From Octopus vulgaris (lineage: Eukaryota), in assembly GCA_951406725.2 (NCBI GenBank), contig OX597830.1, positions 72,540,001 through 72,604,000 on the forward strand: a stretch of DNA of 64,000 bases, in the 5' to 3' direction. The position numbers and the translations under genes are program-made. Numbering within the stretch: the first letter of the stretch is position 1; the number at the start of each line of letters is the position of its first letter. Shown here piece after piece: positions 48,926 to 59,727 of the stretch. The notes below the pieces were generated by a model, which saw nothing but the letters and a program-made list of their open reading frames with translations, did not search any database and was not told the origin of the DNA.

Positions 48926-49164
48926 TTCATCAAACATTTTTATTATTTTCATCAAACATTTTTAATCAGACATTTTAATCAAACATTTTCATCAAACATT
49001 TCATCAAACATTTTTCATCAAATTATTTCATCAAACATTTTCATCAAACATTTTTCATCATTTGCATCAAACTATTTTCATCAGTTTCATCAAACATCTT
49101 TCATCAAACATTTTTATCAAACATTTTTATGTAACATTTTCATAAAACCATTTATCATCAAACA
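48926..49164 (-). repeat. Inverted satellite block, type A copy 1
   Basis: Monomers read TTTTCATCAAACA on the + strand. Confidence 0.97.
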
Positions 49165-51097
49165 TTTGATGAAAAATGTTTGATGAAAATGTTTAATGAA
49201 AATGTTTGAAATAGTTTGGTGAAAAAGGTTTGATGAAAAATGTTTGATGAAAATGATGAAAAATGTTTGTTGAAAATGTTTGATGAAAATGTTTGTGAAA
49301 TAGTTTGATGAAAAATGTTTGATGAAAATGTTTGATGAAAATATTTGATGGAAATGTTTCATGAAATGTTTGATGAAAATGTTTGAAAATGTTTGATGAA
49401 AAATGTTTGATGAAAATGATGAAAAATGTTTGATGAAAATGATGAAAAATGTTTGAAGAAAATGTTTAATGAAAATGTTTGTAAAATAGTTTGGTGAAAA
49501 ATGTTTGATGAAAAATGTTTGATGAAAATAATGAAATATGTTTGATGAAAATTTTGATGAAAATGTTTGATGAAAATGTTTGATGAAAATGTTTGATGCA
49601 AATGATGAAATATGTTTGATGAAAATGTTTGATGAAAATGTTTGATGAAAATATTTGATGAAATGTTTGATGAAGATGTTTGATGAAAATGTTTGAGGAA
49701 AATGTTTGATGAAAAATGTTTGATGAAAATGATGAAAAATGTTTGATGAAAATGATGAAAAATGATTGACGAAAAAAATTGGTGAGAATTTTTCATGAAA
49801 ATGTTGATGAAAATATTTGATAAAAATGTTTGAAGAAAAATGTTTAATGAAAATGTTTGATGAAAACGTTTGATGAAAAATGATTGATGAAAAATGTTTG
49901 ATGAAAATGATGAAAAATATTTAATGAAAATGATGAAAAATATTTGATGAAAATGTTTGATGAAAATGTTTGGGAAATAGTTTGATGAAAAATGTTTGAA
50001 AATGATGAAAAATATTTGGTGAAAATGATGAAAAATGTTTGATGAAAATGTTTGATGAAAATGTTTGGGAAATAGTTTGATGAAAAATGTTTGATAAAAA
50101 TGATAAAAATGTTTGATGAAAATGTTTGATGAAAATGTTTGATGAAAAATGTTTGTTGCAAATGATGAAATATGTTTGATGAAAATGTTTGATAAAAATG
50201 TTTGATGAAAATGTGTGATGAATAATGTTTGATGCAAATGATGAAATATATTTGATGAAAATGTTTGATGAAAATGTTTGATGAAAAATGTTTGATGCAA
50301 ATGATGAAATATGTTTGATGAAAATGTTTGATGAAAATGTTTGATGAAAATGTTTGATGAAATGTTTGATGAAGATGTTTGATGAAAATGTTTGAGGAAA
50401 ATGTTTGATGAAAAATGTTTGATGAAAATGATGAAAAATGTTTGATGAAAATGATGAAAAATGTTTGACGAAAAAAATTGGTGAGAATTTTTTATGAAAA
50501 TGTTGATGAAAATATTTGATAAAAATGTTTGAAGAAAAATGTTTAATGAAAATGTTTGATGAAAACGTTTGATGAAAAATGATTGATGAAAAATGTTTGA
50601 TGAAAATGATGAAAAATATTTGATGAAAATGATGAAAAATGTTTGATGAAAATGTTTAATGAAAATGTTTGAAATAGTTTGGTGAAAAATGTTTGATGAA
50701 AAATGTTTGATGAAAATGCTTGATGAAAATATTTGATGAAAAATGTTTGATGAAAATGCTTGATGAAAATATTTGATGAAAAATGTTTGATGAAATGTTT
50801 GATGAAAATGTTTAATGAAAATATTTGATGCAAATGATGAAATATGTTAGATGAAAATATTTGATGTAAAATGTTTGATGAAAATGATGAAAAATGTTTG
50901 ATGAAAATGTTTGATATGAATGTTTCATGAAAAATGTTTGATGATAAATGTTTTTATGAAAATGTTATATAAAAATGTTTGATAAAAATGTTTGATGAAA
51001 AATGTTTGATGAAACTGATGAAAAATGTTTGATGAAAATGTTTGATGAAAATGTTTCATGAAAAATGTTGGATGATAAATGTTTGATGAAAATGTTT

Positions 51098-51336
51098 TTC
51101 ATCAAACATTTTTATTATTTTCATCAAACATTTTAAATCAGACATTTTAATCAAACATTTTCATCAAACATTTCATCAAACATTTTTCATCAAATTATTT
51201 CATCAAACATTTTCATCAAACATTTTTCATCATTTGCATCAAACTATTTTCATCAGTTTCATCAAACATCTTTCATCAAACATTTTTATCAAACATTTTT
51301 ATGTAACATTTTCATAAAACCATTTATCATCAAACA
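51098..51336 (-). repeat. Inverted satellite block, type A copy 2
   Basis: Offset 2172 from copy 1, near-identical. Confidence 0.97.
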
Positions 51337-57188: not shown

Positions 57189-57482
57189 TTCATCAAACAT
57201 TTTTATTATTTTCATCAAACATTTTTAATCAGACATTTTAATCAAACATTTTCATCAAACATTTCATCAAACATTTTTCATCAAATTATTTCATCAAACA
57301 TTTTCATCAAACATTTTTCATATTTTCATGAAAACATTTTTCATCAAAAATTTACATTAAACATTTTCATCAACAATTTTCATGAAACATTTGAATCAAT
57401 CATATATCATCAATCATTTATCGACATTTATCATCAAACATTATGATTAAACATTTTCATCAAATATTTATCATCAAACATG
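57189..57482 (-). repeat. Inverted satellite block, type B copy 2
   Basis: Offset 2157 from B copy 1. Confidence 0.97.
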
Positions 57483-59434
57483 TTCATCATGTTTGATGAA
57501 AAGGTTTAAAGAACATGTTTGATTAAAATGTTTGACGAAAATGTTTGATAAAATTTTGATGAAAATGATGAAAAATGTTTGATGAAAATGTTTGATGAAA
57601 ATGATTGGTGAAAATGTTTGATGAAATGTTTCATGATAATGTTTGATGAAAATTTTTGATGAAAAATGTTTTATGAAAATGATGAAAAATGTTTGATGAA
57701 AATGTTTGATGAAAAATGTGTGATGAAAATGATGAAAAATGTTAGATGAAAATGATGAAAAATGTTTGATGAAAATGTTTGAAAATGTTTGATGAAAAAT
57801 GTTTGATGAAAATGATGAAAAATGTTTGATGAAAATGATGAAAAATGTTAGATGAAAATGATGAAAAATGTTTGATGAAAATGTTTGAAGAAAAATGTTT
57901 GATGCAAATGATGAAATATGTTTGATGAAAATGTTTGATGAAAATGATGAAAAATATTTGATGAAAATGATGAAAAATGTTTGATGAAAATGTTTGATGA
58001 AAATGTTTGGGAAATAGTTTGATGAAAAATGTTTGATGAAAATGATGAAAAATACTTGATGAAAATGATAAAAAATGTTTGATGAAAATGTTTCATGAAA
58101 ATGTTTGATGAAAAATGTTTGTTGGAAATGATGAAATATGTTTGATGAAAATGTTTGATAAAAATGTTTGATGAAAATGTGTGATGAAAAATGTTTGATG
58201 CAAATGATGAAATATATTTGATGAAAATGTTTGATGCAAATGATGAAATATGTTTGATGAAAATGTTTGATGAAAATGTTTGATGAAATGTTTGATGAAG
58301 ATGTTTGATGAAAATGTTTGAGGAAAATGTTTGATGAAAAATGTTTGATGAAAATGATGAAAAATGTTTGATTAAAATGATGAAAATTGTTAGATGAAAA
58401 TGATGAAAAATGTTTGATGAAAATGTTTGATGAAAATGTTTGAAGAAAAATGTTTGATGCAAATGATGAAATATGTTTGATGAAAATGTTTGATGAAAAT
58501 GTTTGATGAAAACGTTTCATGAAAAATGTTTCATGAAAAATGTTTGATGAAAATGATGAAAAATATTTAATGAAAATGATGAAAAATGTTTGATGAAAAT
58601 GTTTGATGAAAATGTTTGGGAAATAGTTTGATGAAAAATGTTTGATGAAAATGATGAAAATATTTGATGAAAATGATGAAAAATGTTCGATGAAAATGTG
58701 TGATGAAAATTGTTTGATGCAAATGATGAAATATATTTGATGAAAATGTTTGATGAAAATGTTTGATGAAAAATGTTTGATGCAAATGATGAAATATGTT
58801 TGATGAAAATGTTTGATGAAAATGTTTGATGAAAATGTTTGATGAAATGTTTGATGAAGATGTTTGATGCAAATGATGAAATATGTTTGATGAAAATGTT
58901 TGATGAATATGATGAAAAATGATTGATGAAAATGATGAAAAATGTTTGACGAAAAAATTGGTGAGAATTTTTCTTGAAAATGTTGATGAAAATATTTGAT
59001 AAAAATGTTTGAAGAAAAATGTTTAATGAAAATGTTTGATGAAAACGTTTGATGAAAAATGATTGATGAAATATGTTTGATGAAAATGATGAAAAATATT
59101 TGATGAAAATTATGAAAAATGTTTGATGAAAATGTTTAATGAAAATGTTTGAAATAGTTTGGTGAAAAATGTTTGATGAAAATGATGAAATATGTTTGAT
59201 GAAAATATTTGATGAAAATGTTTGATGAAAATATTTGAGGAAAATGTTTGATGAAAAATGTTTGATGAAAATGATGAAAAATGTTTGATGAAAATGTTTG
59301 ATGAAAATGTTTGTGAAATGTTTGATGAAAATAATTGATGGAAATGTTTGATGAAATGTTTGATGAAAATGTTTGAAAATGTTTGATGAAAAATGTTTGA
59401 TGAAAATGATGAAAAATGTTTGATGAAAATGTTT

Positions 59435-59727
59435 TTCATCAAACATTTTATTATTTTCATCAAACATTTTTAATCAGACATTTTAATCAAACATTTTCAT
59501 CAAACATTTCATCAAACATTTTTCATCAAATTATTTCATCAAACATTTTCATCAAACATTTTTCATATTTTCATGAAAACATTTTTCATCAAAAATTTAC
59601 ATTAAACATTTTCATCAACAATTTTCATGAAACATTTGAATCAATCATATATCATCAATCATTTATCGACATTTATCATCAAACATTATGATTAAACATT
59701 TTCATCAAATATTTATCATCAAACATG
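59435..59727 (-). repeat. Inverted satellite block, type B copy 3
   Basis: Offset 2246 from B copy 2. Confidence 0.97.

Follow-up and report, generated by a model that had tools for sequence, protein, structure and literature searches.

Inverted blocks in a 13-bp satellite array of Octopus vulgaris: probable passive amplification of one old inversion

In a 64,000-nucleotide stretch of Octopus vulgaris DNA (the window), a 13-bp satellite array contains six short blocks in reverse orientation, which fall into two types, A and B. The left junction is common to all six, and the first 133 bp show 0 substitutions when block A1 or A3 is compared with block B1, with 27 of the 123 11-mers of this shared start missing from the forward array. 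Because they share this junction and a start carrying private variants, the six blocks are the descendants of one inversion rather than fold-back artefacts. We consider it probable that one old inversion, rebuilt once, was copied passively inside duplications of 1.8-2.3 kb. The initial annotation had offered passive amplification of one old inversion as an alternative to function, and it proved to be the best fit, with the addition of a recent second strand switch that would have made type A.

The evidence comes from 19 kb of array at a single locus, in which the commonest unit is TGTTTGATGAAAA (316 of 1324 forward units in the unit parse). The array, its diverged parts and the blocks, the last delimited by segmentation, are as follows.

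45229..64000, forward strand: 13-bp satellite array (TRF and unit parse), continuing beyond the window end
45229..45880, forward strand: diverged proximal edge, an older array layer (mismatch counts and private 11-mers)
63690..64000, forward strand: diverged units reappear (private 11-mers 40/150 and 41/141)
48926..49164, reverse strand: inverted block A1, 239 bp
51098..51336, reverse strand: inverted block A2, 239 bp
53271..53509, reverse strand: inverted block A3, 239 bp
55031..55332, reverse strand: inverted block B1, 302 bp, old type
57188..57489, reverse strand: inverted block B2, 302 bp
59434..59734, reverse strand: inverted block B3, 301 bp

Mismatches in the proximal edge number 10-17 per 130 bp, compared with a median of 5, and private 11-mers 32-51 per 150, while the return of diverged units at 63690-64000 possibly means that the distal end of the array is near. 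Ordinary repeat-rich DNA precedes the array, and both visible array ends are diverged, a pattern suggestive of a small interstitial block. The long open frames that cross the array were considered as genes and rejected, their products being the low-complexity translation of the 13-bp repeat. A mariner fragment and a retroelement fragment are also present in the window; a similarity search gave an octopus-named match for the retroelement fragment, but none among the 120 matches listed for the mariner fragment and none for a short-repeat frame. An Rfam search of the window gave 0 matches, as did exact searches of metagenome contigs with the left-junction word and of metagenome and viral contigs with three plain units. 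When words from 55000-55400 were compared with sequencing runs, run X1 contained 0.68 of 37 sampled words, which may or may not include junction-spanning ones, and X1 may be the source sample, so that the match lends no support. Runs X2 and X3 contained almost none of these words, which does not prove absence (three runs, one study), and no RNA run was among the listed runs with these words.

An independent search, combining word counts per strand with a two-state segmentation, recovered the six reverse blocks at the starts first proposed (48926, 51098, 53271, 55032, 57189 and 59435; spacings of 2172, 2173, 1761, 2157 and 2246). The reverse-word count was 0 in every 100-bp bin outside the blocks from 45201 to 64000, and the junction hairpins were stronger than all 200 shuffles at each of the three junctions folded, which indicates that the pattern is not due to chance. 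The size range of 240-295 bp given initially is close for type A (239 bp) but too short for type B, which measures 301-302 bp because most of what had been read as the loop of the type-B palindrome is inverted-block sequence. The reversed part takes up 239-302 bp of units of 1761-2246 bp (11-17%), and 8.6% of the array as a whole (1622 of 18772 bp). A recurrence about every 2.2 kb holds for 48926-59734 but not for 45229-48925 and 59735-64000, both of which lack an inversion, leaving 3.7 kb of array block-free upstream of the blocks and 4.3 kb downstream.

The larger units in which the blocks lie are less uniform than the description of two higher-order repeat families had implied.

47935..54014, forward strand: higher-order repeat family A, about 2.8 copies of a 2172-bp unit
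61700..62241, forward strand: copy of the B2 left flank that lacks the inverted block and stays forward (98% over 541 bp)

Homogeneity as a higher-order repeat is confined to family A, whose copies differ over 2171 bp by 3 substitutions and two gaps of 1 bp (99.8% alike) and whose multi-monomer units are far more alike than neighbouring monomers. The units of family B, on the other hand, are mosaics for which alignment, at 98%, is limited to stretches of 280-860 bp, and in B2 a new left flank is joined about 20 bp or less from the junction. The inversion was indeed amplified within larger units and carried through both families, but it is not built in, because the B2-type flank recurs at 61700-62241 without the block and 3.7 and 4.3 kb of the array are block-free. 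For the same reason the sites are not regularly spaced, the B repeat family continuing there without the block.

The two block types differ in age. Type B is judged old because 75 of the 149 11-mers of its right half are missing from the forward array and because the rare words of the block and both flanks are found elsewhere only in the proximal edge (GAACATG three times, a 12-mer at 45643 and a 10-mer at 45282). Collinear homology between the B right half and the array edge found no support in alignment scores, edge windows scoring 111-159 against an all-window mean of 140 and a best of 178 at about 46550; the two have only rare words in common. An origin of the shared 133 bp by local fold-back of the adjacent flank was rejected, the best forward match being 91.6% and no better beside the junction than in other places. 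When type B is turned back, 10/13 and 13/13 of the 14-mers spanning its two junctions are found in the forward array, for all three B blocks, whereas in all three A blocks the worse side reaches at most 6/13. The test is suggestive of a type B that is reversible into register at both ends, a score that independent junction pairs matched in 20/300 to 98/300 simulations, depending on the null. Type A, by contrast, is recent, since just 3 of the 96 11-mers of its right half are missing from the forward array and 89 bp match one forward segment exactly.

54465..54583, forward strand: segment whose reverse complement is the type A right half, likely the donor lineage of a second strand switch

This segment gives an 89-bp exact inverted match to the type A block and 98% over 102 bp, and has two diagnostic units in common with it, each occurring once in the forward array. 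On these alignments, the type A right half and 54465-54583 have a common origin. Copying from the segment into type A, rather than the reverse, is inferred from the greater variety of its forward relatives.

The history that we favour would have three steps. About 302 bp in the older array layer would have flipped in place once, giving type B, through replication template switching or repair at a 3-base T/A microhomology between a unit and the unit's own reverse complement. A switch in a stretch of about 33 bp that the block has in common with forward sequence (about 54551-54583) may then have swapped the right half for a fresh 106-bp reverse copy of the forward segment, giving type A. Short inversions and inverted repeats are a known product of template switch-and-return events (PMC5453318), and the four-point template-switch model, in which a reverse-complement copy is inserted, fits type A; the model was described for single-copy human DNA at short range, whereas the putative switch here spans about 600 bp or more and lies in a satellite. 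Finally, tandem duplications, which are themselves demonstrated, multiplied both block types and once gave a new left flank, presumably by unequal exchange. RNA from the array, if transcribed, would fold back and would likely be an ADAR substrate, as a side effect and not as the cause of the persistence of the block.

The junction palindromes invite a functional reading, and we compared them with inversions simulated in the array. The left junction, described as 14-bp arms around a 7-nt spacer, has this form in the first block only; the other five of six have 16-18-bp arms and a 3-nt loop, which places them in the upper tenth of the null. In long perfect AT-rich palindromes of the cruciform-forming type, near-perfect arms of hundreds of bases flank a tiny spacer. 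The blocks are not of this kind: perfect arms at the palindrome tips are 12-18 bp, and within 1.2 kb of a block exact inverted matches extend to at most 33-43 bp at five of six blocks and 89 bp at one. Arms of at least 14 bp arose at 23% of 3000 random junctions, and arms of at least 16 bp with a loop of at most 5 at 9-12% of 300. The DNA hairpins at the junctions (-12.1 to -20.7 kcal/mol) far exceed those of plain array (-2.2 +/- 2.0) but match those of simulated inversions (-15.6 +/- 4.6). The same holds for RNA: read-through transcripts are predicted to fold strongly into duplex, as had been proposed, at -197 to -238 kcal/mol (489-542 nt) compared with -2 to -78 for 500 nt of plain array, yet 12 simulated inversions gave -232 +/- 25 kcal/mol. 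Either strand pairs 71-86% of its bases in these predicted folds, the uninterrupted stems measure 17-55 bp, and the fold of 48700-49400 has a z of -23 against 20 shuffles. Since simulated inversions match the arm lengths, DNA hairpins and RNA folds, the junctions bear no sign of optimisation, and the special meaning attached to their palindromes is not supported. Within our preferred explanation, the simulations point to junction hairpins that follow from the geometry of inverting any tandem array.

Conservation gives a similar picture. Stronger conservation of the block, apparent in pairwise changes (2/904 in the block against 16/1620 in the flank, p 0.027, the same changes being counted repeatedly), was lost once each site was counted singly, with 1/301 variable columns in the B block and 6/404 in the right flank (p 0.25). 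Of the six flank changes, four are variants with at least 15 occurrences across the array, a pattern expected from exchange between forward units. Such tests are low in power because the six blocks represent only three independent junctions. Against purely passive copying, the left junction has outlasted two adjacent rearrangements, and five of its six copies carry the tight hairpin described above.

A hairpin-RNA or endogenous siRNA locus folds into long duplexes, is transcribed and is processed into small RNAs; the array has the long duplexes in its predicted fold only. Plain satellite transcribed in both directions would yield dsRNA without any inversion, which counts against the idea that the blocks were retained because hairpins of read-through RNA are diced or edited and silence the satellite family. 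We consider this idea unlikely: the predicted pairing on either strand favours it, but folding is no stronger than in simulated inversions, the repeat family also has copies that lack the block (61700-62241), the block's conservation is not in excess (p 0.25) and the window has no Rfam match. The hyper-editing rate of Octopus bimaculoides, among the two highest of 19 species, speaks for it, and the same source describes many predicted long duplexes in this octopus and a palindromic repeat as the most edited family in Xenopus (PMC5625713). An extended version, which as a joint claim is equally unlikely, makes the block a self-renewing fold-back seed that pairs with any forward copy and drives strand switches and dsRNA, leading to self-silencing or editing of the satellite; it takes type A as the record of a driven strand switch, in a host that is an extreme A-to-I editor. 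It is very unlikely that the junctions are cruciform-forming, centromere-type dyad symmetries, as proposed for Tribolium pericentromeres. The perfect arms and 3-nt loops at five of six left junctions and the hairpins well beyond plain array agree with such a role, and Tribolium has conserved inversion points, but even the authors of the Tribolium work regard the function as unconfirmed (PMC13081366, PMC12581902), only 8.6% of the array is reversed compared with near-symmetric kilobase arms there, and the six copies lie in one place, in what may be a small interstitial array.

Two further readings concern the origin of the blocks. That the old block and its flanks were imported from another locus as a cassette, or that the array is an expanded Helentron-type central repeat whose copying switched strand, seems unlikely to us. 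The confinement of the rare words of block and flanks to the array edge would fit, as would a motif 50 bp upstream of the array.

45152..45179, forward strand: weak resemblance to a Helentron-type left end (11-bp word, 10 nt, 7-bp inverted copy)

The motif has the geometry of the oyster HINE left end, an 11-12-bp subterminal repeat with a 7-12-bp inverted copy 1-12 bp away and a microsatellite (PMC7492417), but its hairpin (z -1.0) is no better than shuffles, of which 36/200 fold as well, and no clear microsatellite follows; the comparison rests on the left end, the array's right end lying beyond the window. All junctions lack foreign sequence, and the flip brings the register back in place, both of which speak against a cassette. 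Assembly or fold-back read artefacts are highly improbable as the source of the junctions. The 99.8% identity of family A copies could have led an assembler to inflate or collapse copy number, but a fold-back read is an exact mirror of adjacent sequence with one switch, whereas the blocks show two switches apiece, together with private variants without a forward source, block copies differ at single bases, and one junction is common to two block types.

Among known systems, TmSat2 (MAD2) of Tribolium madens has a 704-bp unit with subunits of about 110 bp in opposite orientation (PMC13081366). Both are larger units made wholly of one basic repeat, partly reversed without foreign DNA at the switch, and both have conserved inversion points and predicted hairpins of unproven function. 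In TmSat2, arms of about 300 bp fill most of the unit, and the satellite, analysed in 5764 arrays, lies in multi-megabase putative pericentromeric regions; the octopus array is built from a basic unit of 13 bp, reverses 11-17% of each larger unit (1.8-2.3 kb), shows six copies of the reversed part at the one locus in view, and has one block type that was likely rebuilt by a second switch. Intra-unit dyad symmetry is present as opposite-orientation subunits of one repeat without foreign DNA, but not as a near-symmetric palindrome (239-302 of 1761-2246 bp), nor as an inversion fixed in a homogenised unit, given the block-free flank at 61700-62241 and the B mosaics. An inversion within the amplified unit is also found in the 1061-bp satellite of Tribolium brevicornis (inverted subunits of about 470 bp) and the 385-bp satellite of Trichogramma brassicae (80-bp inverted repeats), both as cited in PMC13081366 and PMC12581902, and in the latter species the inverted part is likewise a minority of the unit; those satellites have homogenised, complex monomers, whereas in the octopus array a simple unit forms a higher-order repeat that is local and unfinished and has block-free relatives. 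The macro-dyad symmetries of TfSat01 and TfSat03 in Tribolium freemani resemble it in their few conserved junction types, lack of intervening sequence and short loops, but there whole kilobase subarrays reverse, on 3-7 chromosomes per type, whereas here short blocks reverse and return (PMC12581902). Human HSat3B5 (chr9) and beta satellites, with more than 200 inversion breakpoints, are likewise short-unit or diverged satellites with many strand switches, in which head-to-tail order is often broken; their arrays are far larger, and the passages describing them report no fixed short block in a higher-order unit (10.1101/2021.07.12.452052).

A 2026 paper calls it uncommon for a satellite unit to contain a long inversion (PMC13081366). 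Our literature search found no account of an octopus satellite, and the lineage described here would therefore be new. The array is a clear, small record of satellite turnover, with an old flip, a second switch whose donor survives at a distance of 0.6-1 kb, and recent duplications of 2.2 kb. It also calls for caution with the dyad-symmetry model of centromeres, since amplifying one inversion yields conserved palindromic inversion points without selection. Should small RNAs or editing prove to centre on the junctions, comparing units with and without the block would test directly, within one array, whether satellites are silenced by intra-unit inversions.

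Word counts made separately on each strand, together with a two-state segmentation, called six reverse blocks, short stretches of the 13-bp satellite in the opposite orientation to the majority (forward) units, at the coordinates of the initial annotation and nowhere else; these blocks are a real feature of the array. The lengths of 240-295 bp that had been claimed for them needed revision.

Reverse blocks in the satellite array
Starts 48926, 51098 and 53271, minus strand: type A blocks (A1-A3), 239 bp
Starts 55031, 57188 and 59434, minus strand: type B blocks (B1-B3), 301-302 bp

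Reversed sequence makes up 1622 of the 18772 bp of the array, which is without inversion over its initial 3.7 kb and visible final 4.3 kb. The commonest unit, TGTTTGATGAAAA, accounts for 316 of the 1324 forward units, among which 191 are distinct, and four satellite unit words had no match in 1-45228. A single-base variant of the unit creates a perfect 10-bp palindrome, TTTCATGAAA, which occurs 49 times in the array (45229-64000) and is a ready microhomology for additional strand switches.

The satellite begins abruptly at 45229 and extends through the window end. The roughly 45 kb before it is AT-rich animal DNA with abundant microsatellites and dispersed repeats.

Features preceding the array
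3291-4226, minus strand: degraded non-LTR retroelement fragment, broken up by long microsatellites of TTC and ATT
5424-5655, 11776-11934, 14984-15215, 20644-20889, 26160-26391, 30631-30814, both orientations: short dispersed repeat family 2
19638-20032, 21636-21892, 24201-24601, 28270-28425, 31876-32142, 34104-34528, both orientations: short dispersed repeat family 1
25347-25629: 132-bp tandem duplication, copies 99% identical, within a TA-rich microsatellite field
35924-36919, plus strand: mariner-type transposase (PF01359 relatives)
43683-44420: dispersed repeat immediately upstream of the array

The retroelement fragment (3294-3719) was closest, among 5 matches, to Octopus bimaculoides (71% over 142 aa), with a weaker named match in Octopus vulgaris; on this one fragment the source is likely an octopod, and no octopus-named match was listed for two other queries. 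The transposase is read in two frames split by one stop codon (36389-36391); its listed matches include unnamed proteins with identities of up to 80-90%. Copies of the two short families, which we take to be likely SINEs, are 70-95% alike and represent an additional origin of inverted pairs in the region. The 43683-44420 repeat is covered by hundreds of distinct contigs in three sequencing runs, with loose contig ends clustering at 43683-43690 and 44157-44161. Its minus-strand reading terminates in CTAG then T at about 43690, a pattern typical of Helitron 3' ends, and its hairpin was no better than in shuffles. The 11-mer GAAAGCGTTAC is found at 45037-45047 and again, 115 bp away, from 45152; behind this second copy come a 7-bp inverted copy and a degenerate AAN-like run, and then the array. 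This second motif (45152-45179) could be a Helentron-type left end or, on the minus strand, the 3' end of a Helitron; the Helentron-like motif preceding the array (cf. PMC7492417) is a weak lead.

The left junctions had been described as palindromes around a 7-nt spacer, which holds for the first block (14-bp arms), while in the other five of six perfect arms of 16-18 bp enclose a 3-nt loop; the best arms at the right junctions are 12-13 bp. Over 61 nt, junction DNA hairpins have energies of -12 to -21 kcal/mol, compared with -2.2 +/- 2.0 in plain array. Modelling also bore out the proposal that a read-through RNA would fold back, with predicted energies of -197 to -238 kcal/mol and 71-86% of bases paired (12 folds: three blocks, two sides, two strands), against -2 to -78 in 10 plain folds. 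The proper control, however, is random inversions made from the array itself, and these gave junction hairpins of -15.6 +/- 4.6 kcal/mol (300 trials), RNA folds of -232 +/- 25 kcal/mol (12 trials), arms of at least 14 bp in 23% and, at return junctions, of at least 12 bp in 33% of 3000 trials, and 16-bp arms with a loop of at most 5 in 9-12% of 300 trials. The hairpins and folds thus stand out against plain array but not against random inversions. Nor was there a significant excess of conservation in the B blocks (1 of 301 columns variable versus 6 of 404 in the right flank, p 0.25); p was 0.027 when changes were tallied pair by pair, a procedure that counts the same ones repeatedly. Because there are just three independent junctions, these tests do not demonstrate selection on the blocks and are too weak to exclude it.

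As judged from their sequence, the six blocks likely trace to one old inversion. Their initial 133 bp is common to all, with no substitutions between A1 or A3 and B1, and 27 of its 123 11-mers are private variants not found in the forward array; the top forward match is 91.6%, and sequence beside the junction matches no better than distant sequence. A fold-back read would mirror its neighbour exactly, and we excluded this origin because of the private variants and the two switches in each block. The B right half is more diverged than the shared part (75 of 149 11-mers not in the forward array; 11.3 mismatches per 100, where forward tiles have a median of 5 per 130). The diverged initial 600 bp of the array is the only other place with rare words from B and from both its flanks; over the whole segment, alignment with this edge scored no higher than average. 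Type B would have arisen by a simple in-place flip of an array segment. When turned back in place, all three B blocks regained head-to-tail register at both ends: of the 14-mers that span the junctions, 10 of 13 and 13 of 13 also occur in the forward array. A simple flip would give this result; the match is suggestive only, because under four nulls unrelated junction pairs scored equally in 20, 84, 36 and 98 trials out of 300. Both B junctions lie, as read from the sequence, at a T3/A-run overlap common to the unit and its reverse complement.

Type A blocks did not return to register in the flip test. Their right 106 bp is the reverse complement of forward 54465-54566 (89 bp exact; 98% over 102 bp); five other forward relatives match this half at 93-96%. 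Two diagnostic units of this half have their single forward-array occurrence at 54465-54566, in a comparison that aligned four of the six forward relatives, the remaining two being family A duplicates. The homology extends about 33 bp into the part common with B, an overlap that likely marks the crossover of a second switch, which would replace the old right half with a reverse copy of 54465-54566. We infer this copying direction because the forward relatives show greater variety. The simplest reading is that type A is the product of a switch-and-return (template-switch) event, as modelled in PMC5453318. The array's sole long perfect inverted repeat is 53414-53502/54465-54553 (89 bp, 962-nt spacer).

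Family A, the higher-order repeat with type A blocks, spans 47935-54014 in about 2.8 copies of 2172 bp, copies 1 and 2 differing by three substitutions and two 1-bp gaps; its copy number could still be wrong. The B units are alignable only in 280-860 bp pieces. B2 and B3 share a left flank that differs from that of B1 and A; the join lies no more than about 20 bp from the junction. The exchange maps to 57168-57188, close to the hairpin tip; a single exchange, in an array where alignment often breaks, does not establish a breakage hotspot. Another copy of the B2 and B3 left flank lies at 61700-62241 (98% over 541 bp) and continues forward without a block, and the B-unit middle recurs at 62717-63698, also without one. 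The inversion, claimed to be part of the amplified unit, therefore rides in only some duplications. Such duplications would carry blocks along passively.

Inversions fixed within satellite units are reported for Tribolium madens TmSat2 (PMC13081366) and, as cited there and in PMC12581902, for T. brevicornis and Trichogramma; human HSat3B5 and beta satellites have over 200 inversion breakpoints (10.1101/2021.07.12.452052). The array described here resembles these in that its strand switch is conserved and has no foreign DNA at it. Unlike the unit-fixed cases, it lacks symmetry and fixation in the unit, and we therefore class it as a variant of inverted-subunit satellites. A text search of literature listings on octopus and cephalopod satellites, centromeres and assemblies found no description of the repeat.

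Because units are diverged at both visible ends, the array appears to be an interstitial block of roughly 20 kb with its distal end beyond the window, which would argue against a centromere. We consider it most likely that the blocks were amplified passively; the boldest alternative, in which a cephalopod satellite would silence itself through a hairpin carried in its own unit, seems improbable. Any transcript of the array region would likely be edited, since the very high A-to-I hyper-editing of octopus is tied to long duplexes (PMC5625713).
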